A stretch of 64,000 nucleotides of DNA from Escherichia coli (GCF_024502345.1 NZ_JALDNN010000001.1); one strand, 5' to 3'. Shown: positions 10,225-64,000, counted from the first letter of the stretch. Numbers and translations: made by a program. Notes: a model not told the origin generated them from the letters alone.

Positions 10225-10708
10225 CATCACCATAATATTTCTGATACAGCGTAAACTCCGCTGTCAATCATGAGCAAAATTTACTCTGTGGCGAGATAAA
10301 ACTCCGGCCTTACCGGGTTATCCCCAAAGCAACGGCTTTTTTAACATTTGTCAAGATGAGTGATGACAGTTTTATGGCAAGAGATGCCTGTTCAGTGACT
10401 GCCATTGCATTTATCTAACCAGTTAAAAAATAAAAGATATTTCTTTGAGCCGTCTTTAACGCCAATTCGCGTGCAAGCCGCGTATTCTCTCGCTTGCCTC
10501 GTGTTTTCTAACTCTAATACACATGGTTATCCACAGGAATAGTGGATAACTGTCTCCAGCCCCTATCCCCCGCCGCCTGGGCAATTCCCACATTCGCCGC
10601 ATGAGGCGGAAGTAAAATTTTTTTCGTGATTATTTTAGAATTTAATTGGTTAAATTGCAGTCAATCGAAGACGCGATCTCGCTCGCAATTTAACCAAATA
10701 CAGGATGG

Positions 10709-11386
10709 CTACAACAAGGCAAGGTTTATGTACTTTCCGGTTGCCGCATTTTCTGGATTTTCTGCAAGCCAGGGGATCTCTCCCAGCAGCGGCGCGGGAA
10801 TCATGCGGGTGAGCGTGGTTATATATTCAGCGTGACGTTTTCCAGGAGGCGTGACATCATTCGCCACCCAACCCGCCAGCGTCAGTCCGGCGTGTTGTAT
10901 TGCCTGTGCAGTCAACATCGCGTGATTAATACAGCCGAGTTTCACGCCAACCACCAGTATTACCGGCAGTTGTTCCTGTGTTACCCAATCCGCAAAAGTG
11001 AAAGTGTCAGAAAGGGGCGTAAACCAGCCGCCAGCGCCTTCCACTAACACCCAGTCAGCCTGTTGTTCAAGCGCGCGTAATCCGGAGCTCATTACCGATG
11101 ATTCTATCGGCCTGCCCTCTTGCGCGCTGATGATGTGCGGTGAGGTGGGTTCTGCGAAGGTGTAAGGATTTACTGTTGCGTAATCCAGCTGCAGGCTGCT
11201 GTTGCGCTGTAACGCCAGCGCGTCGCTATTGCGTAAACCTTCCGGGGTCTTTTCGCTGCCAGAGGCGACCGGTTTATAACCTGCCGTCCGGTAGCCTGCT
11301 GCCTTTGCGGCTTGTAAAAGTGCACAACTGGCGACAGTTTTCCCCACTTCGGTATCCGTTCCGGTGACAAAATAACGTTTACTCAC
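10709..11386 (-). CDS. bioD: Dethiobiotin synthetase
   Basis: 225 aa with GTG start ([18 protein letters not shown]-loop); ORF track begins 2 codons upstream at TTG. Confidence 0.93.
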
Positions 11387-14398: not shown

Positions 14399-15688
14399 AT
14401 GACAACGGACGATCTTGCCTTTGACCAACGCCATATCTGGCACCCATACACATCCATGACCTCCCCGCTGCCGGTTTATCCGGTGGTGAGCGCCGAAGGT
14501 TGCGAGCTGATTTTGTCTGACGGCAGACGCCTGGTTGACGGAATGTCGTCCTGGTGGGCGGCGATCCACGGCTACAATCACCCGCAGCTTAATGCGGCGA
14601 TGAAGTCGCAAATTGATGCCATGTCGCATGTGATGTTTGGCGGTATCACCCATGCGCCAGCCATTGAGCTGTGCCGCAAACTGGTGGCGATGACGCCGCA
14701 ACCGCTGGAGTGCGTTTTTCTCGCGGACTCCGGTTCCGTAGCGGTGGAAGTGGCGATGAAAATGGCGTTGCAGTACTGGCAAGCCAAAGGCGAAGCGCGC
14801 CAGCGTTTTCTGACCTTCCGCAATGGTTATCATGGCGATACCTTTGGCGCGATGTCGGTGTGCGATCCGGACAACTCAATGCACAGCCTGTGGAAAGGCT
14901 ATCTGCCAGAAAACTTGTTTGCTCCCGCCCCACAAAGCCGTATGGATGGCGAATGGGATGAGCGCGATATGGTGGGCTTTGCCCGCCTGATGGCGGCGCA
15001 TCGTCATGAAATCGCGGCGGTGATCATTGAGCCGATTGTCCAGGGCGCAGGCGGGATGCGCATGTACCATCCGGAATGGTTAAAACGAATCCGCAAAATA
15101 TGCGATCGCAAAGGTATCTTGCTGATTGCCGACGAGATCGCCACTGGATTTGGTCGTACCGGGAAACTGTTTGCCTGTGAACATGCAGAAATCGCGCCGG
15201 ACATTTTGTGCCTCGGTAAAGCCTTAACCGGCGGCACAATGACCCTTTCCGCCACACTCACCACGCGCGAGGTTGCAGAAACCATCAGTAACGGTGAAGC
15301 CGGTTGCTTTATGCATGGGCCAACTTTTATGGGCAATCCGCTGGCCTGCGCGGCAGCAAACGCCAGCCTGGCGATTCTCGAATCTGGCGACTGGCAGCAA
15401 CAGGTGGCGGATATTGAAGTACAGCTGCGCGAGCAACTTGCCCCCGCCCGTGATGCCGAAATGGTTGCCGATGTGCGCGTACTGGGGGCCATTGGCGTGG
15501 TCGAAACCACTCATCCGGTGAATATGGCGGCGCTGCAAAAATTCTTTGTCGAACAGGGTGTCTGGATCCGGCCTTTTGGCAAACTGATTTACCTGATGCC
15601 GCCCTATATTATTCTCCCGCAACAGTTGCAGCGTCTGACCGCAGCGGTTAACCGCGCGGTACAGGATGAAACATTTTTTTGCCAATAA
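14399..15688 (+). CDS. bioA: Adenosylmethionine-8-amino-7-oxononanoate aminotransferase
   Basis: 429 aa from [17 protein letters not shown]; ORF-track start upstream is an alternative start inside the operator region. Confidence 0.95.
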
Positions 15689-15746
15689 CGAGAAGTCCGC
15701 GTGAGGGTTTCTGGCTACACTTTCTGCAAACAAGAAAGGAGGGTTC

Positions 15747-16223
15747 ATGAAACTCATCAGTAACGATCTGCGCGATGGCGATAAATTGCCGCATCGTCAT
15801 GTCTTTAACGGCATGGGTTACGATGGCGATAATATTTCACCGCATCTGGCGTGGGATGATGTTCCTGCGGGAACGAAAAGTTTTGTTGTCACCTGCTACG
15901 ACCCGGATGCGCCAACCGGCTCCGGCTGGTGGCACTGGGTAGTTGTTAACTTACCCGCTGATACCCGCGTATTACCGCAAGGGTTTGGCTCTGGTCTGGT
16001 AGCAATGCCAGACGGCGTTTTGCAGACGCGTACCGACTTTGGTAAAACCGGGTACGATGGCGCAGCACCGCCGAAAGGCGAAACTCATCGCTACATTTTT
16101 ACCGTTCACGCGCTGGATATAGAACGTATTGATGTCGATGAAGGTGCCAGCGGCGCGATGGTCGGGTTTAACGTTCATTTCCACTCTCTGGCAAGCGCCT
16201 CGATTACTGCGATGTTTAGTTAA
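15747..16223 (+). CDS. ybhB: PEBP-family protein YbhB
   Basis: 158 aa; CYDPDAPTGSGWWHW PEBP signature. Confidence 0.9.
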   Translation: MKLISNDLRDGDKLPHRHVFNGMGYDGDNISPHLAWDDVPAGTKSFVVTCYDPDAPTGSGWWHWVVVNLPADTRVLPQGFGSGLVAMPDGVLQTRTDFGKTGYDGAAPPKGETHRYIFTVHALDIERIDVDEGASGAMVGFNVHFHSLASASITAMFS

Positions 16224-17671: not shown

Positions 17672-17878
<207 letters not shown>

Positions 17879-42014: not shown

Positions 42015-42090
42015 TGGTGGGTCGTGCAGGATTCGAACCTGCGACCAATTGATTAAAAGTCAACTGCTCTACCAACTGAGCTAACGACCC
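42015..42090 (-). tRNA. lysQ: tRNA-Lys (anticodon UUU)
   Basis: Exact 76 nt match to remembered E. coli tRNA-Lys incl. CCA; anticodon loop CUUUUAA. Confidence 0.95.
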
Positions 42091-42123
42091 CTTGCGGGAT
42101 TATGCTGCTTTAATCATTCAGGA

Positions 42124-42199
42124 TGGTGGGTCGTGCAGGATTCGAACCTGCGACCAATTGATTAAAAGTCAACTGCTCTACCAACTGAGCTAACGACCC
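42124..42199 (-). tRNA. lysZ: tRNA-Lys (anticodon UUU)
   Basis: Identical 76 nt tRNA-Lys copy. Confidence 0.95.
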
Positions 42200-42247
42200 A
42201 TACGGGTGTTACCTGAAAGATTTTTACTCGGGGCCAATCTTTAAGAT

Positions 42248-42323
42248 TGGTGGGTCGTGCAGGATTCGAACCTGCGACCAATTGATTAAAAGTCAACTGC
42301 TCTACCAACTGAGCTAACGACCC
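42248..42323 (-). tRNA. lysY: tRNA-Lys (anticodon UUU)
   Basis: Identical 76 nt tRNA-Lys copy. Confidence 0.95.
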
Positions 42324-42326
42324 GAG

Positions 42327-42402
42327 TGGTGGGTGATGACGGGATCGAACCGCCGACCCCCTCCTTGTAAGGGAGGTGCTCTCCCAGCTGAGCTAATCAC
42401 CC
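42327..42402 (-). tRNA. valZ: tRNA-Val (anticodon UAC)
   Basis: 76 nt match to remembered tRNA-Val(UAC); 3 nt spacer to lysY. Confidence 0.95.
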
Positions 42403-42453
42403 GATACTGCGCTAGATACTACAAACTACTTCCACCGAACCCACCGTAATTAG

Positions 42454-42529
42454 TGGTGGGTCGTGCAGGATTCGAACCTGCGACCAATTGATTAAAAGTC
42501 AACTGCTCTACCAACTGAGCTAACGACCC
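42454..42529 (-). tRNA. lysW: tRNA-Lys (anticodon UUU)
   Basis: Identical 76 nt tRNA-Lys copy. Confidence 0.95.
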
Positions 42530-42531
42530 GG

Positions 42532-42607
42532 TGGTGGGTGATGACGGGATCGAACCGCCGACCCCCTCCTTGTAAGGGAGGTGCTCTCCCAGCTGAGCTA
42601 ATCACCC
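42532..42607 (-). tRNA. valT: tRNA-Val (anticodon UAC)
   Basis: 76 nt tRNA-Val copy; 2 nt spacer to lysW. Confidence 0.95.
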
Positions 42608-42642
42608 GATACTACGCTGGATACTACAACTAACTATGTTAG

Positions 42643-42703
42643 TGGTGGGTCGTGCAGGATGACTCGACTTCGTCTCGCCCTTCGGGCCGTTGCTGATGCA
42701 ACG
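42643..42703 (-). repeat. tRNA-Lys 3'-end-derived pseudo-tRNA fragment in lysT-valT spacer
   Basis: tggtgggtcgtgcagga + tgactcg(a)cttcg(t)ctcgcccttcgggccg, near-identical to the fragment at 41859. Confidence 0.6.
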
Positions 42704-42742
42704 TTATCCTTCACGTTTTACTACCGCTTCCACCTTAGCGAT

Positions 42743-42818
42743 TGGTGGGTCGTGCAGGATTCGAACCTGCGACCAATTGATTAAAAGTCAACTGCTCTAC
42801 CAACTGAGCTAACGACCC
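42743..42818 (-). tRNA. lysT: tRNA-Lys (anticodon UUU)
   Basis: Identical 76 nt tRNA-Lys copy; first gene of operon. Confidence 0.95.
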
Positions 42819-50345: not shown

Positions 50346-51914
50346 TTAGCGTGCCGGCTGAGTAGTCGTGGAAGACTGCTCAAAGTGATAGCGACCGGTT
50401 TTCAGGCTGCTTGGGCCGAGGCGTGCAAACTTGAACATTAAGAACAATTCTGCCACCAGGAACAGGGTATACAGGCCGCAAATCAGCACCATTGAGAAGA
50501 TGAGATCGCCTGCGGTCAGTGACGAGTTCGCCACAGCTGTCGGCAGCACTTCACCGATAGCCCACGGTTGGCGGCCATATTCAGCCACGAACCAGCCCGC
50601 TTCTACAGCAATCCACGGCAGCGGAATACCGTACAGCGCGGCGCGCAGCAGCCATTTTTTCTCGCCAATGCGGTTGCGGATGACACTCCAGAAAGAGAGC
50701 GCGATGATTGCCAGCAGCAGGAAGCCACACGCCACCATGATACGGAACGCGAAGTACAGCGGCGCTACACGCGGAATGGAGTCTTTGGTTGCCTGTTGAA
50801 TCTGCGCTTCAGTCGCATCAGCCACGTTTGGCGTATAGCGTTTCAGCAGCAGACCGTAACCGAGGTCTTTCTTCATGCTATTGAACTGGTCACGAACTGC
50901 CTGGTCGGTAGAACCAGAACGCAGTTGCTCGAGCAGAGAGTACGCCTTCATCCCGTTACGAATGCGTTCTTCATGCTGCACCATCAGTTCTTTCAGGCCG
51001 ATAACTGGAGTATCCACGGAACGCGTTGCAATGATGCCCAGCGCGTAAGGGATCTGGATCGCAAATTTGTTCGTCTCCTCTTCCTGATCAGGAATGCCGA
51101 ACAGAGTAAAGGCAGCAGGCGCAGGTTGCGTTTCCCACTCGGCTTCAATAGCAGCCAGTTTGGTTTTCTGCACGTCGCCCATTTCGTAACCAGATTCATC
51201 ACCCAGAACAATAACAGACAGAACGGCAGCCATACCGAAGCTGGCAGCGATAGCAAAGGAGCGTTTAGCGAAGGCGAAGTCACGACCTTTCAGCATATAC
51301 CATGCGCTGATACCGAGGATGAACATCGCGCCAGTCACATAACCAGACGCTACAGTGTGAACGAATTTCACCTGAGCAACCGGGTTAAGCACCAGCTCGG
51401 AGAAGCTCACCATCTCCATACGCATAGTTTCAAAGTTGAAATCGGACGCGATTGGGTTTTGCATCCAGCCGTTCGCAACCAGAATCCACAGTGCGGACAG
51501 GTTTGAACCGAGCGCCACCAGCCAGGTGACACACATATGCTGAACTTTACCCAGACGATCCCAACCGAAGAAGAACAGACCTACAAAGGTGGATTCGAGG
51601 AAGAAGGCCATCAGACCTTCGATTGCCAGCGGCGCACCGAAGATATCCCCTACATAGTGGGAATAGTAAGACCAGTTAGTCCCGAACTGGAACTCCATGG
51701 TCAGACCGGTAGCCACACCCAGAGCGAAGTTGATACCAAACAACTTGCCCCAGAACTTGGTCATATCTTTATAAATCTGTTTGCCGGAAAGGACGTAGAC
51801 CGTTTCCATAATGGCCAGCAGGAACGCCATACCGAGCGTCAGTGGCACAAAAAGGAAGTGGTACATCGCGGTCAAGGCAAACTGTAAGCGCGACAGTTCG
51901 ACTATATCTAACAT
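50346..51914 (-). CDS. cydA: Cytochrome bd-I ubiquinol oxidase subunit I
   Basis: 522 aa from [15 protein letters not shown]. Confidence 0.95.
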
Positions 51915-52251
51915 CATGACTCCTTGCTCATCGCATGAAGACTCCGAGAGTGAACCCCGTTAGAAAGGGTCACACGCATGCCCCAATACAAAATTATTTG
52001 CTCGCCTCTATCGTTGCCATTTCATCAAAAGAGGAAAAGACAATGATAAAAAAGTTACAAATATGTTAATGAATAAACCAAATTGATCCCGTAATTATAT
52101 TACGCCGCAAAATCCTTACAATAAACAGGTTTTTATTGAGCAAATTTGCATTTTTCGACAGTGATCAATTTATAGCGAAATTGTCACGATCTCACCAATT
52201 TGATCTACGACAATTTATCGTGTTTTGCAGATTTTTTTCAAGAATTAAAAA

Positions 52252-52265
52252 TTGATTTATATCAA
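52252..52265. promoter_or_regulatory. FNR-type box in the cydA upstream region
   Basis: ttgatttatatcaa = TTGAT-N4-ATCAA about 340 bp upstream of cydA. Confidence 0.55.
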
Positions 52266-52719
52266 AACCAACCAAATATGTTAATTATGTATAAACCATA
52301 GATCATTGGTGATTTTATTGTTAATTTATTGTGAAATATTTATGCAACACAATTATTACAATGAAAAGGTATAGATAAAAAACCAGTGTTTTATTTAACA
52401 GAACCGCCCAATCAACTTTTTATAATACCAATTGATTAGAGTAGCCAATTTGTTGCTATTTTACATAACATATTTTTATCAAAGTTAATTGATTGTTGCC
52501 TTTATGAGCACCGACCGTAAGCCCGTTATGTTATTGTTTCATTAGTAATAATCACTTAAATGTATCGATGAAACAGGTATGACTTACCGGGAGTGATTGT
52601 TTCTGAGTGAACAGAGGCCACTTTCGCCTGATAAATGAAAAATGAGCGATTTTTGCAAGTTAGTTTTTCTATAGCCGAGTACGCTCAGCGCCTCGCTTGA
52701 TTACAATGAGGTTGCTGCT

Positions 52720-53664
52720 ATGAGTCCTGATAATATCGGTTCGGCTGTCAATCGCTTCTCAGGTTGGCCATCTAATGATCCTCTAAAAACAGATGAAGAA
52801 TCAATGAAATCACCCGTGACTGTGCAAGTAATAAAGATGATTGCCGCCATCCTTGACCCACATCGGATAGTCGTTGGAATTGATACACTTTATACAACGC
52901 AGCGCGAAACATTTACCTCAGAGAGTCAACAGCTCATTGAATCAGCATTGCAAACACTTCATGTGATGAATTTAAATAATCTGGAAACAAATCGCGATGA
53001 AGAAGGTCACTATCTGGCTTTTGAATATAACGTTGACACCTCTGACAGAATAACCGTTTCTGCTTATAATGAAAAAAAGCCTGGCTGCTATGGCCAATGT
53101 CTTTTAATACAGGATGACGAAACAGACTTATTTAACCTGATAAAAATTAAAATTTTCGAAGCCAGGCATAATTATGTCGCTCAATTGATGAGCGATCCGG
53201 AATTTATGTTCAAATTCAGTTATAGCGCTCAACAAAATAGATTAGAACCTCATCTTCTGGTTCCCGCTTATTTCCCTCTAAAAACAAACGAACCGGTTAC
53301 GCAAGAGGATGTACTGTTACTTTATCGTTTCTTTAAAATGAATGATGATTTTAATAAATTAACATCAGAGGAATACATGAGTATCATGACTCCTCTGATG
53401 AAGTGTGAGCGTAGCGTCCACGACAACAACAGGTATGTGACGGGCAAAGATACCCATCTTCTGGACTATCCTCCTTCTGGTAACCAGATACATTTCCATA
53501 TTTTTCCTGACGAATCAGCAACACTAGTCCTTTATTTTTCAAACAATGACCTTGAATGTTTCGTCTTTGAAAGAGATATTCCTAGCCAGTATCGCTTTTT
53601 CAAAATGTTTACCAATCTGGCACTGGTTATAGATCAGTTAACCGAAGCCAATAAAATACTTTAA
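52720..53664 (+). CDS. Hypothetical protein (314 aa), AT-rich accessory gene, no recognised domain
   Basis: Intact ORF with SD (gagg) 9 nt upstream; visibly AT-rich codon usage; no TM segment, signal peptide or P-loop; Ser/Asn/Pro-rich N-terminus. Confidence 0.6.
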   Translation: MSPDNIGSAVNRFSGWPSNDPLKTDEESMKSPVTVQVIKMIAAILDPHRIVVGIDTLYTTQRETFTSESQQLIESALQTLHVMNLNNLETNRDEEGHYLAFEYNVDTSDRITVSAYNEKKPGCYGQCLLIQDDETDLFNLIKIKIFEARHNYVAQLMSDPEFMFKFSYSAQQNRLEPHLLVPAYFPLKTNEPVTQEDVLLLYRFFKMNDDFNKLTSEEYMSIMTPLMKCERSVHDNNRYVTGKDTHLLDYPPSGNQIHFHIFPDESATLVLYFSNNDLECFVFERDIPSQYRFFKMFTNLALVIDQLTEANKIL

Positions 53665-53744
53665 TTTTCTATATATCCCTATGGCAAATATTGCTAAACA
53701 ATGCCTGGGGATTAATTTTTATTACTCACGGAAAGATTTAAATA

Positions 53745-54167
53745 ATGATACCATCTCAGATCTCTTTCAATACCCTTCCAGTCAATGCAACATACGCTTC
53801 AGAGACAACAGTTGACACACAAAAATTCTCTGACATCCTCTACTCAGCGGGGTGTTCCCTAAAGGATATGGCTTATCTGAGCAGATGTCTGGCATCAATA
53901 CACCCGACTCTCGCCAAAAACATTTATGAAACAGAAAATCTCAGCGATCAAAAATTACTGCATATTGATTGCCGTAGTACAAATGACATCAAGATAAATA
54001 TCTTTTTTGGTCAGCAACGAGAAGGATTAATTGAAATTAGTTCTGACACAGTTATTTTTTCGATACTGTCTTCATTGATTGACTCCGCCATTTCTAAATT
54101 TCAACATCAAAACCCCGTTAACGGTTCAGTTAATCCTGAACTATTGTATAAGGATTATACTGATTAA
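53745..54167 (+). CDS. Hypothetical protein (140 aa), AT-rich accessory gene, no recognised domain
   Basis: Intact ORF 80 bp downstream of the 314 aa ORF, same strand, SD-like ggaaag; Ser/Thr/Asn-rich N-terminus. Confidence 0.55.
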   Translation: MIPSQISFNTLPVNATYASETTVDTQKFSDILYSAGCSLKDMAYLSRCLASIHPTLAKNIYETENLSDQKLLHIDCRSTNDIKINIFFGQQREGLIEISSDTVIFSILSSLIDSAISKFQHQNPVNGSVNPELLYKDYTD

Positions 54168-54714
54168 ACCCACCCAGTCGCGAAAAATGGCCTGCGTTAT
54201 TGCCAGACGTAATAAAACCGTTGATTAACGTTACTCATACTGGTAGCACCTTCATGTACCTCTCTTTTTTACGAAAAATCAAAAGAGCTAACTAAGGTCA
54301 TAATTCGCATGAATCATTAACCATTTGTTATTTTCAACATTATTTTTACATTAAGCAGAAATGAATTGCAGTGAAATTCGACTTAAATCTTATGAAATGC
54401 ATTTACTCATGGCTAAAACCACGTCACAAAAATGCAAATTAGAAGTAGATCACAATTATCTCAATACATTAAATCAAGTTAATTTTAAAAATTTAACATT
54501 CATGTCATTAGTTGACATAACACACTGAATTAACATGGAAATTTAAAAACACACTTTAAACAATCATTTCCCGAAAGACATTTTGAAAATAGATCAATTG
54601 CAACATTACGGTCAGATAAAGACACTCCTGTGATATTAAACCTGTGCCGTTATGAACGGCCATAAATACGACGTGTGTAACTTATTTTACTCTCTGTCTT
54701 ACAAAGGATTACCC

Positions 54715-55164
54715 ATGAAGAAAGCAACACTTGTGATTGGCGTTATTGGCGCGGACTGCCATGCAGTAGGCAATAAAGTTCTGGACCGCGTTTTTAGCAA
54801 CCACGACTTCAGAGTCATTAATCTGGGCGTAATGGTCAGCCAGGACGAATATATTGATGCTGCCATCGAAACTGGCGCTGACGCGATTATCGTCTCCTCT
54901 ATCTATGGGCATGGCGATATCGACTGTCTGGGCATGCGCGAACGCTGCATCGAGCGTGGACTGGGTGACATCCTCCTCTATGTGGGCGGTAACCTGGTGG
55001 TCGGAAAACATGACTTCGCTGACGTGGAAACCAAGTTCAAAGAGATGGGATTTGATCGCGTCTTTGCCCCAAGTCATGACTTAGAAGATGTTTGTCAGCT
55101 GATGGCCCACGATATCAATCAACGTCATGACGTTGATACTCGTATTCTTGAAGAGGCTATCTGA
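54715..55164 (+). CDS. glmS: Glutamate mutase sigma subunit (B12-binding)
   Basis: Cobalamin-binding DxHxxG motif ([10 protein letters not shown]); close match to remembered Clostridium GlmS/MutS; start at MKKATLVIG. Not the GlcN-6-P synthase glmS. Confidence 0.88.
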
Positions 55165-56552
55165 TGCAAATCGTCTCTGTCGATATTGGATCGACGTGGA
55201 CCAAAGCTGCCCTCTTCACCCGGGAGGGGGACGCGTTAACGTTGGTTAACCACGTACTGACCCCAACCACCACCCATCATCTGGCGAAGGGGTTTTTCTC
55301 CAGCCTGAACCAGGTGTTAAACGTAGATAATGCCCTCCCCCTGTTAAACAGCGGTGAGGTTGCATTGAAGTATTCCTCCTCTGCCAAAGGTGGGCTGGCG
55401 GTTGCCGCAATGGGATTGGTGCCTTCTATCACCCTGGAAACCGCGAAAGTAACCGCTCACTCTGCGGGGGCTAAAATTGCGCAATATTACGCCTACAAGC
55501 TGAACCGCCGTGATATCCAGGCACTGGAAGAAACGCAGCCCGATATTCTCTTGTTCACCGGCGGCACCGACGGCGGAGAAGAAAGCTACGGACTGAATAA
55601 CGCCCGTGTGCTGGCAGAATCCAAACTCGACTGCGCCATTATTTATGCCGGAAACCGGGATATTCAGGACGAGGTGCAGGAGATCCTCGGGCATAAAGAC
55701 CTGACCATCGTCGACAATGTTCTGCCCGATCTTGACCATCCGAACCCTTTAGCCGCACGCCAGGCTATTTGCGACATATTCCTTAAACGCATCGTTAAAG
55801 GGAAAGGGCTGGATGTCATTGTTGATAAAACAGGCGAAGAACCAATGCCGACACCATGGACGGTCTTTGAACTGGTCAAGGCAATCAGTAACGTCGATCA
55901 CAGCTGGAAAGAGTTCATGCTGATCGACATGGGCGGCGCAACCACCGATGTTTATTCCGCCGGTGCCAACACGCTCTCGCCCGACACCGTTTTACACGGC
56001 GTACCGGAACCCTTCGTAAAACGGACGGTGGAAGGCGATCTGGGAATGCGCGTCTCGGCAGTGGTGGTTGGTGAAAGTGCGAAAGAGTTAGTCAATGTGA
56101 ATTTTGCTCAGCAACCCGCACAGCTGGACGCTTTTTATCATTACCTCCGTCATCTAGTCGCTCATCCCGACTACTTACCCGCAAATGCAGAAGAGAAATA
56201 TTTCGATACCGTCCTGGCCGGACTGTGTGTGGGTTATGCCACCGAAAGACATGCGGGCACCAAAAAAGAGGTCTGCACCTGCGTCGGCAATGTCGATTTA
56301 CAGATGGGACGTGACCTGACAACCGTGCGTAAAGTCGTCGGATCCGGCGGATGGCTCTCGCGTGCCAGTCAGTTCGATATGCATCACTGGTTGAAATACC
56401 GCGAGTTAAACGACGACGGTAAACGCATTCTCTTACCGACCGAATTTGAATATTACCGCGATTCCCGGGGGCTATTACCACTGCTGGCAAACGTCGCCAG
56501 AGTCGATCCGCTGGCCGCCGCGCGCACCAGTATTCAATGCTTAACCCTATAA
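55164..56552 (+). CDS. glmL: Glutamate mutase-associated protein GlmL/MutL (actin-like ATPase fold)
   Basis: 462 aa; N-terminal VDIGSTWTKAALF phosphate-1 motif; sits between S and E subunit genes; ATGA overlap with glmS. Confidence 0.8.
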   Translation: MQIVSVDIGSTWTKAALFTREGDALTLVNHVLTPTTTHHLAKGFFSSLNQVLNVDNALPLLNSGEVALKYSSSAKGGLAVAAMGLVPSITLETAKVTAHSAGAKIAQYYAYKLNRRDIQALEETQPDILLFTGGTDGGEESYGLNNARVLAESKLDCAIIYAGNRDIQDEVQEILGHKDLTIVDNVLPDLDHPNPLAARQAICDIFLKRIVKGKGLDVIVDKTGEEPMPTPWTVFELVKAISNVDHSWKEFMLIDMGGATTDVYSAGANTLSPDTVLHGVPEPFVKRTVEGDLGMRVSAVVVGESAKELVNVNFAQQPAQLDAFYHYLRHLVAHPDYLPANAEEKYFDTVLAGLCVGYATERHAGTKKEVCTCVGNVDLQMGRDLTTVRKVVGSGGWLSRASQFDMHHWLKYRELNDDGKRILLPTEFEYYRDSRGLLPLLANVARVDPLAAARTSIQCLTL

Positions 56553-56570
56553 CAATTAAGGCTGCAATCA

Positions 56571-58016
56571 ATGGAACTTCGAAATAAGAAATTAACCCAT
56601 GACGAATTCATGACCGAGCGGCAACAGGTACTGAAAACCTGGGAAACCGGCAAGGATGTTGAAAACTTTGAAGATGGCGTTAAATACCAACAAAACATTC
56701 CTGAGCATAAACGCTTCTCTCATGCCCTGCTGAAAGCAGACAAGGAAGGTAAAACCCTTAGCCAACCGCGCGCAGGTGTGGCGCTGATGGACGAACACAT
56801 CGAACTGCTGAAAACACTACAAGAAGAGTGCGATCTGCTGCCAAGCACCATCGATGCATATACCCGTCTGAATCGGTACGAAGAAGCGGCTGTAGGGATT
56901 AAAAAATCCATCGAAGCCGGAACCTCTAAACTGAACGGTTTACCGGTAGTTAACCATGGTGTCGCAGCTTGCCGTCGCCTCACCGAAACCCTGCAAAAAC
57001 CGCTACAGATCCGCCACGGCACGCCAGATGCGCGTCTGCTGGCTGAAATCTCAATGGCCAGCGGCTTTACCAGTTATGAAGGCGGTGGCATTTCCTACAA
57101 CATTCCGTATGCCAAACGTGTAACGCTGGAAAAATCGATCCGCGACTGGCAGTACTGCGACCGTTTAATGGGGATGTACGAAGAACACGGGATCCGCATC
57201 AACCGCGAACCGTTTGGCCCACTAACGGGTACGCTGATCCCGCCGTTTATCTCGCACTCTATCGCGATAATCGAAGGCTTGCTGGCGCTGGAACAGGGTG
57301 TGAAATCTATCACCGTTGGTTATGGCCAGGTCGGCAGCCTGACGCAGGATGTTGCGGCGATCCAGTCTCTGCGTGAACTTGCACACGAATACTTTCAGAG
57401 CTATGGCTATACCGACTATGAATTAAGTACCGTGTTTCACCAGTGGATGGGCGGCTTTCCGGAAGACGAATCGAAAGCGTTCGCTATTATCTCCTGGGGC
57501 GCAGCCGTCGCGGGGATGTCTGGTGCCACCAAACTCATCACCAAAAGTCCGCACGAAGCCTGGGGCATTCCGACTGCCGCTGCCAACATTCAGGGGCTGA
57601 AAGCCTCCCGCCAGATGCTCAACATGGTCAATGAGCAGAAATTCCCGCCGTGCCCTGCGGTTGAACTGGAAATTGAACTGATTAAGAGCGAGGTTCGCGC
57701 AGTACTGAATAAAGTGTTCGAACTGGGTAATGGTGATATTGCGCGCGGAACGGTGCTGGCATTTGAAGCGGGCGTACTGGATGTGCCGTTTGCGCCAGCC
57801 GCCTGCAACGCGGGCAAAATTCTTCCGGTCCGTGACAACACCGGCGCGATACGCGTACTGGAAGCCGGAGCCGTTCCATTGCCAAAAGATATTCTCGACC
57901 TCCACCACGATTACGTTGCGGAACGCGCACGCTGTGAAGGACGCCAACCGACATTCCAGATGGTTGTAGATGACATCAATGCTGTATCCCACAGTAAATT
58001 AATAGGAAGACCATAA
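56571..58016 (+). CDS. glmE: Glutamate mutase epsilon (catalytic) subunit
   Basis: 481 aa; extensive identity to remembered Clostridium GlmE (LPSTIDAYTR, HGTPD, VFHQWMGGFP, KTPHEA). Confidence 0.9.
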   Translation: MELRNKKLTHDEFMTERQQVLKTWETGKDVENFEDGVKYQQNIPEHKRFSHALLKADKEGKTLSQPRAGVALMDEHIELLKTLQEECDLLPSTIDAYTRLNRYEEAAVGIKKSIEAGTSKLNGLPVVNHGVAACRRLTETLQKPLQIRHGTPDARLLAEISMASGFTSYEGGGISYNIPYAKRVTLEKSIRDWQYCDRLMGMYEEHGIRINREPFGPLTGTLIPPFISHSIAIIEGLLALEQGVKSITVGYGQVGSLTQDVAAIQSLRELAHEYFQSYGYTDYELSTVFHQWMGGFPEDESKAFAIISWGAAVAGMSGATKLITKSPHEAWGIPTAAANIQGLKASRQMLNMVNEQKFPPCPAVELEIELIKSEVRAVLNKVFELGNGDIARGTVLAFEAGVLDVPFAPAACNAGKILPVRDNTGAIRVLEAGAVPLPKDILDLHHDYVAERARCEGRQPTFQMVVDDINAVSHSKLIGRP

Positions 58017-59257
58017 TGAAAATAAAACAGGCCCTGTTCACCGCTGGCTATTCCTCATTCTATTTCGATGACCAGCAGGCGATAAAAAACGGAGCGGGTC
58101 ATGACGGCTTTTTTTATACCGGGGAGCCGGTAACACAGGGGTTTAACGCCGTTCGTCAGGCCGGGGAGTGCGTATCGGTACAGTTGATTCTGGAAAACGG
58201 CGCGGTCGCCGTAGGTGACTGTACTGCCGTACAGTATTCCGGGGCAGGCGGTCGCGATCCACTGTTCCTCGCAGAGCACTTTATTCCGTTCCTCAACGAC
58301 CATATCAAGCCATTACTGGTAGGCCGCGATGTGGATGCTTTCCTGCCGAATGCCCGTTTCTTCGACAAATTGCGTATTGACGGCAACTTGCTGCATACCG
58401 CCGTGCGCTACGGATTATCACAGGCGCTGCTTGATGCTACCGCGCTGGCAACCGGCCGTCTGAAAACTGAAGTGGTCTGTGATGAATGGCAGTTGCCACG
58501 CGTGGCGGAATCCATTCCATTATTTGGTCAGAGCGGCGACGATCGATATATCGCCGTCGATAAGATGATCCTTAAAGGCATCGACGTGCTGCCCCATGCG
58601 CTGATTAATAACGTCGAAGAGAAGCTGGGCTTTAAAGGTGAAAAACTGCGCGAATATGTCCACTGGCTGTCGGATCGCATTCTGAGCAAGCGCACCAGCG
58701 CACGCTACCACCCAACCCTGCACATCGATGTATACGGCACTATCGGTCTGATCTTCGATATGGATCCGCTTCGCTGTGCGCAATACATCGCCAGCCTGGA
58801 AAAAGAAGCGCAAGGCCTGCCGCTCTACATCGAAGGGCCGGTCGATGCCGGTAACAAGCCCGATCAAATTCGCCTGCTGACCGCGATTACCAAAGAGCTG
58901 ACGCGCCTCGGTTCCGGCGTGAAAATTGTGGCCGATGAATGGTGTAACACCTACCAGGATATTGTTGATTTCACTGATGCTGCCAGTTGTCACATGGTGC
59001 AAATCAAAACCCCGGATCTGGGCAGTATTCACAACATCGTCGATGCGGTTCTTTACTGCAACAGCCACAGCATGGAAGCGTACCAGGGCGGCACCTGCAA
59101 TGAAACTGATGTCAGTGCCCGCACCTGTGTCCACGTCGCCCTTGCCGCTCGCCCTATGCGTATGCTGGTAAAACCAGGGATGGGCTTTGACGAAGGCCTC
59201 GATATCGTCTTCAACGAAATGAATCGTACTATCGCGCTGTTGCAGGCTAAGGATTAA
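58016..59257 (+). CDS. mal: 3-methylaspartate ammonia-lyase
   Basis: 413 aa; enolase-superfamily; strong identity to remembered Clostridium MAL (GAGHDGF, VQYSGAGGRDPLFLA, HMVQIKTPDLG); ATGA overlap with glmE. Confidence 0.92.
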   Translation: MKIKQALFTAGYSSFYFDDQQAIKNGAGHDGFFYTGEPVTQGFNAVRQAGECVSVQLILENGAVAVGDCTAVQYSGAGGRDPLFLAEHFIPFLNDHIKPLLVGRDVDAFLPNARFFDKLRIDGNLLHTAVRYGLSQALLDATALATGRLKTEVVCDEWQLPRVAESIPLFGQSGDDRYIAVDKMILKGIDVLPHALINNVEEKLGFKGEKLREYVHWLSDRILSKRTSARYHPTLHIDVYGTIGLIFDMDPLRCAQYIASLEKEAQGLPLYIEGPVDAGNKPDQIRLLTAITKELTRLGSGVKIVADEWCNTYQDIVDFTDAASCHMVQIKTPDLGSIHNIVDAVLYCNSHSMEAYQGGTCNETDVSARTCVHVALAARPMRMLVKPGMGFDEGLDIVFNEMNRTIALLQAKD

Positions 59258-59260
59258 CAA

Positions 59261-60631
59261 ATGGCTCGTTCTTTTAAAGTCTTATCGCCAACGGCAATCC
59301 TCGGGTATGGATTCCCGGAAGAGAGCTTCCGCAAAGCGATGGCAGAATCGCCCGATCTGATCGCCGTTGATGCAGGCTCTTCCGATCCAGGCCCCCACTA
59401 CCTCGGGGCAGGCAAACCGTTTACCGATCGCGCAGGGGTCAAGCGCGATCTGCGCTATATGATCACCGCAGGCGTGCAAAATAATATACCGGTGGTGATC
59501 GGAACGGCTGGCGGTTCTGGTGCCGCACCACACCTGGAGTGGTGCCGAGAAATAATTCATGAGATTGCCCGGGAAGAGCACCTCTCGTTCTCGATGGCGC
59601 TGATCCCGGCAGACGTTGACAAAGCCATCGTCCACCAGGCGCTGGATAACGGCAAAATCACGGCGCTGGAGTTTGTCCCGCCGTTAACCCACGACGCGAT
59701 TGACGAAAGTACGTATATCGTCGCGCAAATGGGCATCGAACCCTTCCAGCGTGCGCTAAAAGAAGGCGCGCAAGTGGTGCTGGGTGGGCGCGCTTACGAC
59801 CCGGCCTGCTTTGCTGCGCTACCGATCATGCAAGGCTTTGATGAAGGTCTGGCGCTGCATTGTGGGAAAATCCTTGAGTGCGCAGCAATCGCCGCAACGC
59901 CCGGCTCAGGCTCTGACTGTGCGATGGGCATCATTGATGACAACGGCTTTACGCTGAAGACATTTAATCCGAAGCGTAAATTTACCGAAACGTCAGCAGC
60001 TGCACACACACTGTATGAGAAATCCGATCCTTACTTCCTGCCAGGACCTGGCGGCGTGTTGAATCTGAAAGGCTGCACATTTAAAGCGGTCAATAACGGC
60101 GAAGTGTACGTCAGCGGTTCTAAGCATGAAGAAACGCCGTATGCCCTGAAACTGGAAGGTGCACGACGGGTGGGCTTCCGCTGTCTGACCATCGCCGGAA
60201 CGCGCGACCCGATTATGATCGCCGGGATCGATAAAATCATCGATGAAGTCAAAACCAGCGTTTCGCGTAACCTGTCGCTCGACGATGACAGCATTCGCAT
60301 CAATTTCCACCTGTACGGCAAAAACGGGGTGATGGGAGACCATGAACCGATGCAAACTGCCGGGCATGAGCTGGGGATTGTCCTTGATGTAGTTGCACCG
60401 ACCCAGGAAATTGCCAACAGCGTTTGCTCGCTGGTGCGCTCTACCATGCTGCACTACGGCTATGAAAACCGCATCGCTACCGCAGGCAATCTGGCGTTCC
60501 CGTTCTCCCCTTCTGATATCCAGGGCGGGCCGGTATACGAATTTTCCATATATCACCTGATTGAAGCCAACGACGCTCTGCGTTTTGATTTCCATATTGA
60601 ACAGGTGACGCCAGAAGGAGTTCAGGCATGA
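59261..60631 (+). CDS. DUF1446 (AtuA N-terminal domain-like) protein of unknown function
   Basis: 456 aa ORF 4 nt after mal; family assignment from memory, not searched. Confidence 0.7.
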   Translation: MARSFKVLSPTAILGYGFPEESFRKAMAESPDLIAVDAGSSDPGPHYLGAGKPFTDRAGVKRDLRYMITAGVQNNIPVVIGTAGGSGAAPHLEWCREIIHEIAREEHLSFSMALIPADVDKAIVHQALDNGKITALEFVPPLTHDAIDESTYIVAQMGIEPFQRALKEGAQVVLGGRAYDPACFAALPIMQGFDEGLALHCGKILECAAIAATPGSGSDCAMGIIDDNGFTLKTFNPKRKFTETSAAAHTLYEKSDPYFLPGPGGVLNLKGCTFKAVNNGEVYVSGSKHEETPYALKLEGARRVGFRCLTIAGTRDPIMIAGIDKIIDEVKTSVSRNLSLDDDSIRINFHLYGKNGVMGDHEPMQTAGHELGIVLDVVAPTQEIANSVCSLVRSTMLHYGYENRIATAGNLAFPFSPSDIQGGPVYEFSIYHLIEANDALRFDFHIEQVTPEGVQA

Positions 60632-60945
60632 AACAGTCAATTGTCTCACTGGCGCAAGTCATTCGTTCGAAAAATGCCGGACCTTACGAACTGGTTTTAG
60701 ATATTTTATTTAAAACGAAAGAAAACTATGAGCGAGTTAAATCATCAGGGCAATTAACCCCAGAACTGATTGCGCGCTTATATCATGTTGAACCTGACTT
60801 TATTCATCGTATTGTCTGGTTTGATCCTTCTAACGCAGTAAAAATCGTCATGCCACGAGATATTATCTCCGGGAATGTAGGTGACAATGATGTCTATGGT
60901 GCACAGCAACATGCACCTTTATTAAATATGAGTTTCGATTTGTAA
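60628..60945 (+). CDS. DUF4387 (AtuA C-terminal domain-like) small protein
   Basis: 105 aa ORF overlapping preceding ORF by 4 nt (ATGA); family assignment from memory. Confidence 0.65.
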   Translation: MKQSIVSLAQVIRSKNAGPYELVLDILFKTKENYERVKSSGQLTPELIARLYHVEPDFIHRIVWFDPSNAVKIVMPRDIISGNVGDNDVYGAQQHAPLLNMSFDL

Positions 60946-61028
60946 AAATCCGAATACTTTTAGCCAACTGACATCCCGTCACTTATTACAGTTCAACACT
61001 TCAGCTATTTGTAAGGTTGTAATAGCAG

Positions 61029-61060
61029 GTAGATGCCTGAATCTCTATTCAGGCATCTAC
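61029..61060 (+). terminator. Inverted repeat / possible attenuator between DUF4387 gene and transporter gene
   Basis: gtagatgcctgaatctctattcaggcatctac perfect 14 bp stem; no clean U-tract. Confidence 0.4.
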
Positions 61061-61084
61061 TTCTCCTGATTCTGATTTATCGCC

Positions 61085-61378
61085 GTGCACCTGATGGAGG
61101 AAAAAATGAAGAAAATAAGTTTAACCACGATGATTCTTTTGGCGCTGGTACTTGGAATGATTATCGGCGTAGTGCTCAATAACACTGTTTCACCGGAAAC
61201 AGCAAAACTCTATGCGCAAGAAATATCGATATTCACGACGATTTTCTTACGACTGATAAAAATGATTATCGCTCCGTTAGTGGTCTCTACCCTGGTGGTA
61301 GGTATTGCTAAAATGGGAGATGCCAAAGCCCTTGGTCGTATTTTTTCTAAAACACTCTTTTTATTTATTTGCGCCTCA
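61085..61378 (+). pseudogene. 5' fragment (98 codons) of a DAACS-family (GltP/DctA-like) dicarboxylate/amino acid:cation symporter gene, truncated by IS1
   Basis: [30 protein letters not shown] matches the GltP N-terminal signature; reading frame runs into IS1 and stops after 8 IS1-encoded codons. Confidence 0.85.
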
Positions 61379-61433
61379 GGTGATGCTGCCAACTTACTGA
61401 TTTAGTGTATGATGGTGTTTTTGAGGTGCTCCA

Positions 61434-61709
61434 GTGGCTTCTGTTTCTATCAGCTGTCCCTCCTGTTCAGCTACTGACGGGGTGGTGCGTAACGGCAAAA
61501 GCACCGCCGGACATCAGCGCTATCTCTGCTCTCACTGCCGTAAAACATGGCAACTGCAGTTCACTTACACCGCTTCTCAACCCGGTACGCACCAGAAAAT
61601 CATTGATATGGCCATGAATGGCGTTGGATGCCGGGCAACCGCCCGCATTATGGGCGTTGGCCTCAACACGATTTTCCGCCATTTAAAAAACTCAGGCCGC
61701 AGTCGGTAA
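61434..61709 (+). CDS. insA: IS1 protein InsA
   Basis: 91 aa; zinc-finger CPSC..CSHC; matches remembered InsA. Confidence 0.95.
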
Positions 61710-62131
61710 CCTCGCGCATACAGCCGGGCAGTGACGTCATCGTCTGCGCGGAAATGGACGAACAGTGGGGATACGTCGGGGCTAAATCGCGCCAGCGCTG
61801 GCTGTTTTACGCGTATGACAGGCTCCGGAAGACGGTTGTTGCGCACGTATTCGGTGAACGCACTATGGCGACGCTGGGGCGTCTTATGAGCCTGCTGTCA
61901 CCCTTTGACGTGGTGATATGGATGACGGATGGCTGGCCGCTGTATGAATCCCGCCTGAAGGGAAAGCTGCACGTAATCAGCAAGCGATATACGCAGCGAA
62001 TTGAGCGGCATAACCTGAATCTGAGGCAGCACCTGGCACGGCTGGGACGGAAGTCGCTGTCGTTCTCAAAATCGGTGGAGCTGCATGACAAAGTCATCGG
62101 GCATTATCTGAACATAAAACACTATCAATAA
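61628..62131 (+). CDS. insB: IS1 transposase InsB (expressed as InsAB' by -1 frameshift)
   Basis: 167 aa ORF in -1 frame relative to insA. Confidence 0.93.
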
Positions 62132-62146
62132 GTTGGAGTCATTACC

Positions 62147-62555
62147 AATCGCCGTTATTAGCTAAAGAATGAATATTAACAATAATATCGGGATGTAACT
62201 TTGTGAATTCATGTAAATTTGGGATTAACCAGTGGGTACTAAAAGTAGGATTAACGGCAAGTTCAATAACCTGAACCGTAGGCTGCCAGGTCATAATGGT
62301 ATTGGTATCGCGTTCCAGCTTATTTAATGTTTCTTTTACTATCCCCAGGTAATACTTCCCTGCATCATTAAGAAAAATGCGTTTTTTAGAGTGTGAAAAT
62401 AACGGAGTACGTAAAAATTCCTCCAGCGCACTTACTTGTCTGAATACTGCACTTTGGGTTAACGCTAACTCCTCTGCCGCTCTGGTATAACTTTCATGAC
62501 GTGCGACGACCTCAAAAGTCACCAGCAGTTCCGTTTTAGGTATTTTCCCTCGCAT
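62147..62555 (-). pseudogene. LysR-family regulator, 3'-truncated by IS1 (only about 135 N-terminal codons remain)
   Basis: LysR HTH (TFEVVARHESYTRAAEELALTQSAVFRQVSALE); last codon and stop are supplied by the IS1 end. Confidence 0.85.
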
Positions 62556-63118
62556 AATGCCGTCCCTTAAAAATAGTTTAAACCATCAAAAATACATTAC
62601 TTATTACGAAGTAATGGTAACAAAGCAGCAATAAATAATTTATAAGAATCATGATTGACATTTATAAACCAGTAAGGCTGGCGTGACAAATATCTTAATC
62701 AGATAATAATAATCCGAAAAGCACAGCGCCTTTCGAATTATCCGGAATCACATTAAGTGAAAATTATTAAATTGATATCATTTATCATATCTGTGGATAT
62801 TATGATAAACAATCAACAAAGATTTTATTTTTGATTTATAGCATATCCATCTAAGAATTTTTGCGATGCTGCAATATCCGGGGTAAAGACCCGATCCTGG
62901 CTGACAAATGGCACGACTTGACGAAAAGCGGTGAACATCGCTTTTGTTGATTTACTTAACGCTACGGTCAAACGCTGGGAAGCCAGTGCATCAGGTAACG
63001 ATTCGAAATTCGCCGTCGTTCTTATTCGTGGCTTGCGGTCGGTCGCGGCAATCCACAGTGGCTGTGGTCATGCAGTCAAGCCTGCAGTCAGATTTCGACC
63101 GTGGTTAACCGTTTAAGG

Positions 63119-63220
63119 TATAAAAAAGGCCATCATACGATGGCCAACCATGTCGAAACCGACAGCCCTTCGCCATTCCTGTAGAGGGAAGCGGCGAGGG
63201 CTATTTCTTATTACAGATAT
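63119..63220 (-). ncRNA. sdhX: sucD 3'UTR with terminator; expected location of 3'UTR-derived sRNA SdhX
   Basis: Immediately after sucD stop; ends in hairpin ggccatcgtatgatggcc + T6; SdhX is reported to derive from the sdh-suc operon 3' end. Confidence 0.55.
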
Positions 63221-64000
63221 TTATTTCAGAACAGTTTTCAGTGCTTCACCGATATCCGCCAGGCTGCGAACGGTTTTCACGCCTGCGGCTTCCAGAGCAG
63301 CGAATTTCTCATCCGCAGTCCCTTTCCCACCGGCAATGATGGCACCCGCGTGGCCCATACGTTTGCCTTTCGGCGCAGTCACACCAGCGATGTAACCCAC
63401 AACTGGCTTGGTAACGTGCTCTTTGATGTACGCAGCTGCTTCTTCTTCAGCGCTACCGCCGATCTCACCGATCATCACGATCGCTTCGGTCTGCGGATCT
63501 TTTTCGAACATTTCGAGAATGTCGATAAAGTTAGAGCCAGGGATCGGGTCACCGCCGATACCGACACAGGTCGACTGACCGAAACCGTAATCCGTGGTCT
63601 GTTTAACCGCTTCATAGGTCAGTGTACCGGAACGGGAAACGATACCCACTTTACCCGGTTTGTGAATGTGACCCGGCTGGATACCGATTTTGCATTCACC
63701 CGGAGTGATAACGCCCGGGCAGTTCGGGCCGATCATACGAACGCCGGCTTCGTCCAGTTTCACTTTCACAGTCAGCATATCCAGCGTCGGGATGCCTTCA
63801 GTGATGGTGATAATCAGTTTGATGCCTGCATCAATAGCTTCCAGAATGGAGTCTTTGCAGAACGGTGCTGGTACGTAGATAACAGAAGCGGTAGCGCCAG
63901 TAGCAGCAACAGCTTCACGCACGGTGTTGAACACCGGCAGGCCGAGGTGGGTAGTACCGCCTTTACCTGGGGTTACGCCGCCAACCATTTTAGTGCCGTA
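63221..64000 (-). CDS. sucD: Succinyl-CoA synthetase alpha subunit, 5'-partial (start beyond window end)
   Basis: Frame open to window edge; matches remembered SucD through C-terminal ..ALKTVLK. Confidence 0.95.

Follow-up and report, generated by a model that had tools for sequence, protein, structure and literature searches.

The genes glmS, glmL, glmE and mal in the window, the whole 64,000-nucleotide stretch of Escherichia coli DNA analysed here, are the first four genes of a truncated derivative of the enterobacterial "glutamate fermentation" island between sucD and cydA, a reading that we hold with a probability of about 0.9. The gene cluster itself is not new. Kronen & Berg (2015, PMC4682846) described it from Enterobacteriaceae, E. 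coli O157:H7 among them, as an island of ~13.7 kb between these two genes with the order glmS-mutL-glmE-mal-DUF1446-gltP-fumD-cobA-LTTR. The locus, the gene order and the 98.9-99.0% identity of the remainder indicate a truncated derivative of this known island rather than a different system. In the published island the glm and mal genes are co-localised with fumD, a gltP-like transporter gene, cobA/cobO and an LTTR gene; here, an IS1 element cuts the symporter and LTTR genes, and nothing of fumD or cobO is left. A reading of the same DNA made from sequence alone (the sequence-only reading) had described a complete, free-standing entry module of four genes. The four genes are intact, but the locus is not, as IS1 has deleted fumD and cobO together with the 3' part of the symporter gene and half of the gene for the LysR regulator. 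Nor do the genes stand alone: they are the front of the ~13.7-kb island, and the tightly spaced block runs on into cmlA and cmlB (59261-60945), so the window also codes for the last step of the pathway.

The island was found in 1120 of the 5426 complete E. coli genomes (20.6%), and the published share is 26.5% (PMC4682846); both figures agree with the earlier statement that the module is present in only a subset of the species. The E. coli background was likewise borne out by the exact Mal and CmlA proteins and both upstream hypothetical proteins, all labelled E. coli in NCBI. The sucD-cydA interval is a variable locus; roughly one E. coli in five, most O157:H7 among them, carries the island there. 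As a B12-dependent route of glutamate catabolism in ~20% of E. coli, the island is of moderate general interest.

Six intact enzyme genes

The retained block consists of the following genes.

54715..55164, + strand: glmS, glutamate (methylaspartate) mutase small B12-binding subunit, 149 aa (NCBIfam, structure alignment, motif)
55164..56552, + strand: glmL (mutL), glutamate mutase accessory protein, 462 aa (NCBIfam, Pfam MutL)
56571..58016, + strand: glmE, glutamate mutase large catalytic subunit, 481 aa (NCBIfam, structure alignment)
58016..59257, + strand: mal, 3-methylaspartate ammonia-lyase, 413 aa (NCBIfam, structure alignment, residues)
59261..60631, + strand: cmlA, predicted citramalate lyase large subunit, in RefSeq AtuA family/DUF1446 (PDB 9ERQ/9EVF chain A, Pfam AtuA)
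60628..60945, + strand: cmlB, predicted citramalate lyase small subunit, in RefSeq DUF4387 (PDB 9ERQ/9EVF chain B, Pfam DUF4387)

The identities of the first four genes were judged by NCBIfam equivalog profiles with their curated cut-offs. GlmS scored 253 bits with NF002612 (cut-off 110) and 246 with TIGR01501 (136), GlmL 893 with TIGR01319 (204) and 509 with NF040745 (475), GlmE 864 with TIGR01503 (390) and Mal 543 with TIGR01502 (286). With scores this high, chance is not an issue. As the sequence-only reading had stated, all four genes are intact where it had placed them; none has an internal stop, and cofactor and catalytic residues are kept.

GlmS aligned from residue 1 with the C. cochlearium/C. 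tetanomorphum GlmS/MutS structures 1I9C, 1CCW and 1BE1. It has the B12-binding fold and the base-off/His-on DxHxxG motif of glutamate mutase (EC 5.4.99.1), which the earlier reading had correctly noted and which reads D14-C-H16-A-V-G19. The sequence AAGGA lies 7-8 nt 5' of the start at 54715; a longer ORF from 54652 was rejected because homology to clostridial GlmS begins at M1 of the 54715 start. GlmE aligned over its full length to 6H9E and 1CCW, and its R67, R99, R148, E170, Y176 and Y180 are identical to clostridial R66, R100, R149, E171, Y177 and Y181 in the 6H9E alignment. They correspond to the substrate-binding arginines, Glu171 and Tyr177/181 (clostridial numbering) of the MthylAspMut_E family, to which the large subunit belongs. 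Mal aligned with the Citrobacter amalonaticus enzyme (1KKO) over 413/413 residues (E=7e-269). As an enolase-superfamily 3-methylaspartate ammonia-lyase (EC 4.3.1.2), it keeps all ten residues checked (Q172, H194, D238, E273, D307, Q329, K331, T360, C361 and L384), among which D238/E273/D307 are the Mg ligands and K331/H194 the bases. GlmL matched at equivalog level, its gene lies between glmS and glmE, and Pfam MutL is recorded on identical metagenome copies; GlmL/MutL is a reactivating chaperone of glutamate mutase, as cited in PMC4682846.

We considered whether these genes might instead encode another B12-dependent mutase together with an enolase-superfamily enzyme acting on another substrate, and regard this as extremely improbable. 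The B12 domain of GlmS does match methylmalonyl-CoA mutase, ornithine/lysine aminomutases and methionine synthase weakly, but these matches are far under their cut-offs (e.g. 48 vs 57, 45 vs 800), whereas the glutamate mutase equivalogs were passed two-fold or more and GlmE matches glutamate mutase only. Another substrate is hard to reconcile with the end-to-end alignment of Mal to a crystallised, characterised methylaspartase with all active-site residues kept. The NCBIfam scores and structure alignments effectively refute a different mutase or lyase identity. GlmS and GlmE are predicted to form an AdoCbl-dependent glutamate mutase that interconverts L-glutamate and (2S,3S)-3-methylaspartate, and the enzyme identities and chemistry given earlier, from glutamate through (2S,3S)-3-methylaspartate to mesaconate, were right. 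Glutamate mutase needs adenosylcobalamin, which E. coli must salvage, and the sequence-only reading had this established knowledge right as well.

CmlA aligned over its full length with chain A of PDB 9ERQ/9EVF ('Citramalate lyase, subunit A (cmlA)'; E=8e-292, ~92% identity) and CmlB with chain B ('Citramalate lyase, subunit B (cmlB)'; E=5e-57). The pair thus comprises an AtuA/DUF1446-type protein of ~456 aa and a DUF4387 protein of ~105 aa, homologous to a solved enzyme and encoded by adjoining, overlapping genes. On the strength of the names given by the PDB depositors and of a single secondary preprint, CmlAB of this E. coli allele is predicted to be a two-subunit lyase that converts (S)-citramalate to pyruvate and acetate. 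The last missing enzyme of the island now has deposited structures, and the public labels of its genes are outdated, reading 'AtuA family' and 'DUF4387' or, for Sakai, 'methylaspartate ammonia-lyase' and 'acyl-CoA synthetase'.

All six genes are tightly spaced, with no frameshift or stop in any. The overlaps at 55164 and 58016, reported earlier as ATGA, are stop/start overlaps of 1 nt rather than 4 nt, in TGATG (55162-55166) and TAATG (58014-58018). The gap between glmL and glmE is 18 nt, cmlA starts 3 nt past the mal stop, and a true 4-nt ATGA overlap lies between cmlA and cmlB at 60628-60631. The six genes are under purifying selection, with pN/pS of 0.00-0.16 against two other alleles, values that record the history before the deletion and do not imply present function.

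An IS1 element replaces 3910 bp of the island

Downstream of cmlB, the island is interrupted as follows.

61106..61378, + strand: remnant of a GltP-like dicarboxylate/amino-acid:cation symporter gene, first 91/426 codons (profile, L001 alignment)
61379..62146, + strand: IS1, 768 bp, at the 3910-bp deletion (ends, ORFs, identity to IS1A/IS1B)
62147..62555, - strand: remnant of a LysR-type regulator gene, N-terminal ~136/301 residues, HTH and linker (LysR-family profiles)

The element begins with GGTGATGCTGCCAACTTACTGAT and finishes with ...GTCATTACC. Its length of 768 bp, its terminal inverted repeats and its insA/insB' frames (61434-61709 and 61628-62131) are characteristic of IS1, and it is 99-100% identical to annotated IS1A/IS1B copies. 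Window positions 51900-61378 and 62147-63300 aligned to 1501-10978 and 14889-16043 of an intact island (L001), such that IS1 stands in place of L001 10979-14888, the 3910 bp that carry the symporter, class I fumarate hydratase, cobO and LysR genes. Both fumD (mesaconase) and cobO (adenosyltransferase) are lost in full; the symporter gene has lost most of its length, and the LysR regulator its C-terminal, effector-binding half. The symporter remnant matches only positions 2-88 of the 437 in the GltP profile NF008440, its alignment to L001 ends at 61378, and contigs L011 and L012 have it annotated as an SDF fragment of 99 aa. LysR-family profiles match the regulator remnant over only the first ~130-140 of ~300 positions, with HTH_1 as the sole Pfam record; the intact gene in L001 is 906 bp. 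The sequences flanking IS1, TGCGCCTCA and AATCGCCGT, differ and form no direct repeat. The lack of a target-site duplication agrees with IS1 having deleted adjacent DNA, or with two IS1 copies having recombined.

The deletion allele is rare. Its IS1 junction was found in 0 of the 5426 complete RefSeq E. coli genomes, among which the deleted segment occurs in 1122 and the retained part in 1120; the ~1120 cluster carriers all keep the deleted segment. Independent contigs from draft genomes and metagenomes carry both IS1 junctions at 100% identity, and so the deletion is not an artefact.

Flanking elements

Three elements upstream of glmS and one downstream of cmlB complete the description of the locus.

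52720..53664, + strand: orphan gene, 314 aa, low G+C (34-39%), no family match
53745..54167, + strand: orphan gene, 140 aa, low G+C, labelled hypothetical protein of E. coli
54168..54714, + strand: AT-rich intergenic region 5' of glmS, G+C 34-38% (sequence read)
61026..61056, + strand: strong hairpin 3' of cmlB and 5' of the symporter gene, with possible roles as terminator, as attenuator or in stabilising RNA (folding)

The 314-aa orphan had no NCBIfam, Pfam, PADLOC or PHROG match, its homologues are from Escherichia only, and its pN/pS is 0.52-0.53. A 64%-identical homologue sits at a cydA-sucD locus without any glm genes (L020), and the gene, which lies within this variable segment, probably does not belong to the pathway. 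Family searches (NCBIfam, Pfam and others) gave no match for the 140-aa orphan, whose pN/pS is 0.24-0.34. The promoter and control region of the glmS block presumably lie within 54168..54714. There is no Rfam match in this region, and hence no cobalamin riboswitch.

Fate of the retained pathway

In an intact island, a GltP-like symporter would bring in glutamate, GlmS/GlmE (AdoCbl-dependent and kept active by GlmL) would turn it into (2S,3S)-3-methylaspartate, Mal would strip ammonia from this product to give mesaconate, FumD would add water to yield (S)-citramalate, and CmlAB would split citramalate into pyruvate and acetate. CobO would adenosylate salvaged corrinoid, and the island's LysR-type regulator, judging by co-localisation only, presumably controls expression. 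Since fumD is deleted, coding capacity is kept for the mutase, methylaspartase and lyase steps but not for the dedicated hydration of mesaconate. The lost functions could be covered by the housekeeping proteins FumA/FumB, GltP/GltS and BtuR. Without the regulator, the block most likely cannot be induced or is expressed poorly.

One possible account, to which we give somewhat less than even odds, is that the locus is a decaying relic whose six remaining genes are neither expressed nor useful, and undamaged for no other reason than that the deletion happened recently. The deletion took the island's sole regulator gene along with three genes that serve or support the pathway, and the absence of the allele from the complete genomes is consistent with a young or minor lineage. 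Moreover, in an O157:H7 strain with an intact island, neither methylaspartase activity nor anaerobic growth dependent on glutamate was found (Kronen & Berg, PMC4682846), and thus even the complete cluster was silent under the laboratory conditions tried. The undamaged reading frames and catalytic residues nonetheless argue against decay, as does the same allele in several independent human-gut and other samples, which indicates that the lineage persists.

Mesaconase activity has been measured for FumD, FumA and FumB; on mesaconate, FumA reaches 4% and FumB 19% of the efficiency that each has with fumarate (PMC4682846). This activity also speaks against a relic, and it favors a pathway that still works from its own LysR-independent promoter, with housekeeping carriers, BtuR and FumA/FumB filling in to convert glutamate to pyruvate, acetate and ammonia. 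The intact, tightly spaced genes have good ribosome-binding sites, and the hairpin (MFE -25.2 kcal/mol over 71 nt, z = -3.8; 0/200 shuffles fold as well), which has no canonical U-tract 3' of it, suggests that the deleted genes were a separate downstream unit. We still consider a working pathway rather unlikely. Promoter-like matches in 54168..54714 were no commoner than in shuffles, with no convincing sigma-70 promoter 5' of glmS, and regulators of the LysR type usually act as activators that induction requires.

It is a long shot that the IS1 deletion created a natural pathway variant in which glmSLE-mal-cmlAB is deregulated, with mesaconate excreted by a gut lineage or routed via FumA/FumB to CmlAB where the intact island is silent. 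Because the locus is truncated, experiments on this strain would examine a cluster without mesaconase, transporter, adenosyltransferase and regulator. The tests proposed in the sequence-only reading have largely been tried already on the intact-island O157:H7 strain, where growth on glutamate and methylaspartase activity were both absent (PMC4682846). What re-examination adds is the truncated state of the locus, the outdated cmlA/cmlB labels and a natural lineage lacking the LTTR and fumD, a possible comparator for studies of regulation.

Comparison with known systems

The closest system is the O157:H7 island (PMC4682846; Sakai ECs_0755-ECs_0764), which occupies the same sucD-cydA locus in the same order, glmS-glmL-glmE-mal-DUF1446-DUF4387. 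The window is 98.9% identical in nucleotides to Sakai and EDL933 over 9.4 kb, and differs in having IS1 for the 3910 bp that hold fumD, cobO, most of the symporter gene and half of the LysR gene.

The clostridial methylaspartate operons (C. tetanomorphum, C. cochlearium and C. tetani: glmS/mutS, mutL, glmE/mutE, mal, mesAB and a citDEF-type citramalate lyase) follow the same overall route, from glutamate through mesaconate and citramalate to pyruvate and acetate. GlmS, GlmL, GlmE and Mal are homologous, with cofactor and substrate residues kept. Clostridia have a mesaconase of two subunits and a citramalate lyase, CitDEF, that resembles citrate lyase (PMC4682846). The enterobacterial island instead has FumD, a class I fumarase of a single chain whose gene is deleted here, and CmlAB, which is of the unrelated AtuA/DUF4387 type. 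The haloarchaeal methylaspartate cycle has glutamate mutase and methylaspartase in common with the window, but it converts mesaconate to mesaconyl-CoA for acetate assimilation, so that direction and purpose differ; no CoA-transferase or hydratase genes of that cycle are present here.

Finally, the 456-aa and 105-aa subunits of CmlAB (PDB 9ERQ/9EVF) align over their full length with the window proteins. The Raoultella planticola enzyme was used in bioRxiv 10.64898/2026.01.16.699985, and the window carries the E. coli allele.

Intact entry genes and citramalate lyase

A variable segment at about 52556-63119 occupies the intergenic locus (~52290-63120) that separates cydA from sucD. It encodes glutamate mutase and its chaperone, methylaspartase and citramalate lyase. 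The sequence-only reading had placed four intact genes for the entry steps here, and their coordinates were borne out, each reading frame being free of internal stops.

Genes of the cydA-sucD locus in the window
cydA, 50346-51917, minus strand
glmS, 54715-55164, 149 aa, no internal stop
glmL, 55164-56552, 462 aa, no internal stop
glmE, 56571-58016, 481 aa, no internal stop
mal, 58016-59257, 413 aa, no internal stop
cmlA, start at 59261, 3 nt past the mal stop, 456 aa, Pfam AtuA
cmlB, overlapping cmlA by ATGA at 60628-60631, 105 aa, Pfam DUF4387
sucD, 63221-63988, minus strand

The NCBIfam equivalog scores were 253 for GlmS (cut-off 110), 864 for GlmE (cut-off 390) and 543 for Mal (cut-off 286), while GlmL matched two models with 893 (cut-off 204) and 509 (cut-off 475). 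The DxHxxG motif reported earlier for GlmS is present as D14-C-H16-A-V-G19. Since the alignment of GlmS with clostridial structures begins at residue 1 and AAGGA lies 7-8 nt 5' of 54715, this position is the favoured glmS start; a longer reading frame from 54652 was ruled out by homology and by the position of the ribosome-binding site. GlmE aligned end to end with 6H9E/1CCW, and the counterparts of R66, R100, R149, E171, Y177 and Y181, which we take to be the substrate-binding set of glutamate mutase, are all identical. Mal aligned with the Citrobacter amalonaticus methylaspartase (1KKO) over 413/413 residues, and all 10 active-site residues checked are present. The junctions at 55164 and 58016, previously described as ATGA overlaps, are actually one-nucleotide TGATG and TAATG stop/start overlaps, and glmL and glmE are 18 nt apart.

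The two genes directly after mal were identified by structure matches. CmlA matched chain A of PDB 9ERQ/9EVF over its full length (E=8e-292, about 92% identity) and CmlB matched chain B, also over its full length (E=5e-57); the depositors named these chains 'Citramalate lyase, subunit A (cmlA)' and 'subunit B (cmlB)'. A 2026 preprint (bioRxiv 10.64898/2026.01.16.699985) employs the Raoultella planticola CmlAB, a gift of the Berg laboratory, for the direct cleavage of citramalate to pyruvate and acetate. No primary description of CmlAB was found in the literature searched. The fate of citramalate in the island was an open question in 2015 (PMC4682846), and CmlAB now appears to be the answer. 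RefSeq PGAP labels cmlA as 'acyclic terpene utilization AtuA family protein' and cmlB as 'DUF4387 domain-containing protein'. In the Sakai record (L010 13263-14947, corresponding to window 59261-60945), the labels for cmlA and cmlB are '3-methylaspartate ammonia-lyase' and 'acyl-CoA synthetase'. The public annotation of both genes is outdated or wrong.

Truncation of the island by IS1

The intact island of the reference L001 (CP021726) consists of two hypothetical genes, glmS, glmL, glmE, mal, an AtuA-family gene and a DUF4387 gene, then a dicarboxylate/amino-acid symporter gene, a class I fumarate hydratase gene, cobO and a LysR-family gene. The gene order in Sakai (ECs_0767-ECs_0755) is the same. 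Kronen and Berg named the fumarase FumD, with mesaconate as its preferred substrate, and gave the frequency of the island as 26.5% in E. coli and 90.6% in O157:H7 (PMC4682846). It is present in 1120 of 5426 complete RefSeq E. coli genomes, to which the island region of the window is at best 99.0% identical.

The module had been called complete, but the island in the window is truncated by IS1. In the alignment with L001, window 51900-61378 pairs with positions 1501-10978 and window 62147-63300 with positions 14889-16043; between these blocks a 768-bp IS1 (61379-62146), the one IS copy in the 64-kb window, stands in place of 3910 bp of L001. As a result, fumD and cobO are deleted entirely, the symporter gene has lost 335 of its 426 codons and the LysR protein the C-terminal ~165 of its 301 residues. 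The IS1 has typical ends and its flanks carry no direct repeat, which points either to an adjacent deletion by IS1 or to two copies of IS1 having recombined.

Two metagenome contigs (L011, L012) match the left IS1 junction with 100% identity, and eight contigs from drafts or metagenomes (L002-L009) match the right one equally well; this recurrence indicates that the deletion is real. These contigs belong to several independent assemblies and break off inside this same IS1, whichever of the two junctions they cover. A lineage with the truncated island is thus present in multiple public samples. The deletion is rare: the IS1 junction occurs in 0 of the 5426 complete RefSeq E. coli genomes searched, where the glm genes are found in 1120 and the deleted segment in 1122, and nearly all glm carriers keep the segment. 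This absence and the best identity of 99.0% had raised the suspicion that the window came from Shigella, which was rejected because the exact proteins carry E. coli labels in NCBI/UniRef and the 64 kb contain a single IS copy. Taken together, we place the probability of the gene identities and the island architecture described here at about 0.9 or higher.

The cydA-sucD locus is a replacement hotspot, occupied in other E. coli by mngRAB (L018), a TPR-repeat pseudogene (L019) or an orphan pair (L020), and by the glutamate island in the window. The remaining window is collinear with a reference E. coli chromosome and free of rearrangements. Its lysT-valT tRNA cluster (42015-42818, minus strand) holds five tRNA-Lys(UUU) and two tRNA-Val(UAC) genes, as many as in the reference strain; this cluster and a REP-like repeat at 17674-17868 are the only internal repeats in the window.

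Upstream orphan genes and regulatory signals

Two orphan genes at 52720-54167 encode 314 and 140 aa at a G+C content of 34-39%. They had no NCBIfam, Pfam, PADLOC or PHROG match, their homologues are confined to Escherichia, and the larger has a 64%-identical homologue at the L020 cydA-sucD locus, which lacks the glm cluster. These observations suggest that the orphans are neighbours of the pathway rather than parts of it; a defence system and a phage remnant were rejected on the same lack of family matches and the glm-free homologue. Their pN/pS against two other alleles was 0.24-0.53, reflecting relaxed constraint; for glmS, glmL, glmE, mal, cmlA and cmlB it was 0.00-0.16.

No cobalamin riboswitch or other known RNA was matched in Rfam at E<=1, either upstream of glmS or over all of 51800-63400, and consensus scans for promoters and terminators were uninformative, with counts no different from those in shuffles. 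A strong hairpin at 61026-61056 separates cmlB from the symporter gene and is much more stable than shuffled sequences, with -25 kcal/mol for the 71 nt folded (z -3.8). It contains a perfect 12-bp inverted repeat, with the stem extended to 16-17 bp, and has no canonical U-tract. This hairpin could be a terminator, an attenuator or a protein-binding palindrome, and the first transcription unit may end there.

Function in the truncated lineage

Glutamate mutase and methylaspartase convert glutamate via methylaspartate to mesaconate and NH3, citramalate lyase cleaves (S)-citramalate to pyruvate and acetate, and the AdoCbl required is derived from salvaged corrinoid. In this strain glutamate uptake would be left to housekeeping carriers, adenosylation to BtuR and the mesaconase step to FumA/FumB, whose efficiency on mesaconate is 4% and 19%, respectively, of that on fumarate (PMC4682846). 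Loss of the effector domain of the LysR-type regulator probably abolished induction. With housekeeping proteins bridging the pathway in this way, the retained block could be functional today, which we consider rather unlikely. O157:H7 ATCC 700728, which carries an intact cluster, showed neither methylaspartase activity nor glutamate-dependent growth (PMC4682846), and this silence makes present-day function in the truncated lineage uncertain. That the retained genes are an unexpressed, non-functioning leftover of the island is a tentative explanation, to which we give somewhat less than even odds. No expression studies naming ECs0757-0764 were found in the literature searched.

Comparison with known systems

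The first two enzymes of the clostridial pathway are homologous to those of the window. In contrast, the clostridial mesaconase differs from the single-chain class I fumarase of the enterobacterial island, and the clostridial citramalate lyase is of the CitDEF type whereas that of the island is CmlAB. The haloarchaeal methylaspartate cycle is likewise unlike the enterobacterial pathway. The locus in the window is a truncated member of the published island and nothing new in kind; its sole additions are the strain-specific IS1 deletion and the recognition that the public cmlAB annotation is out of date.
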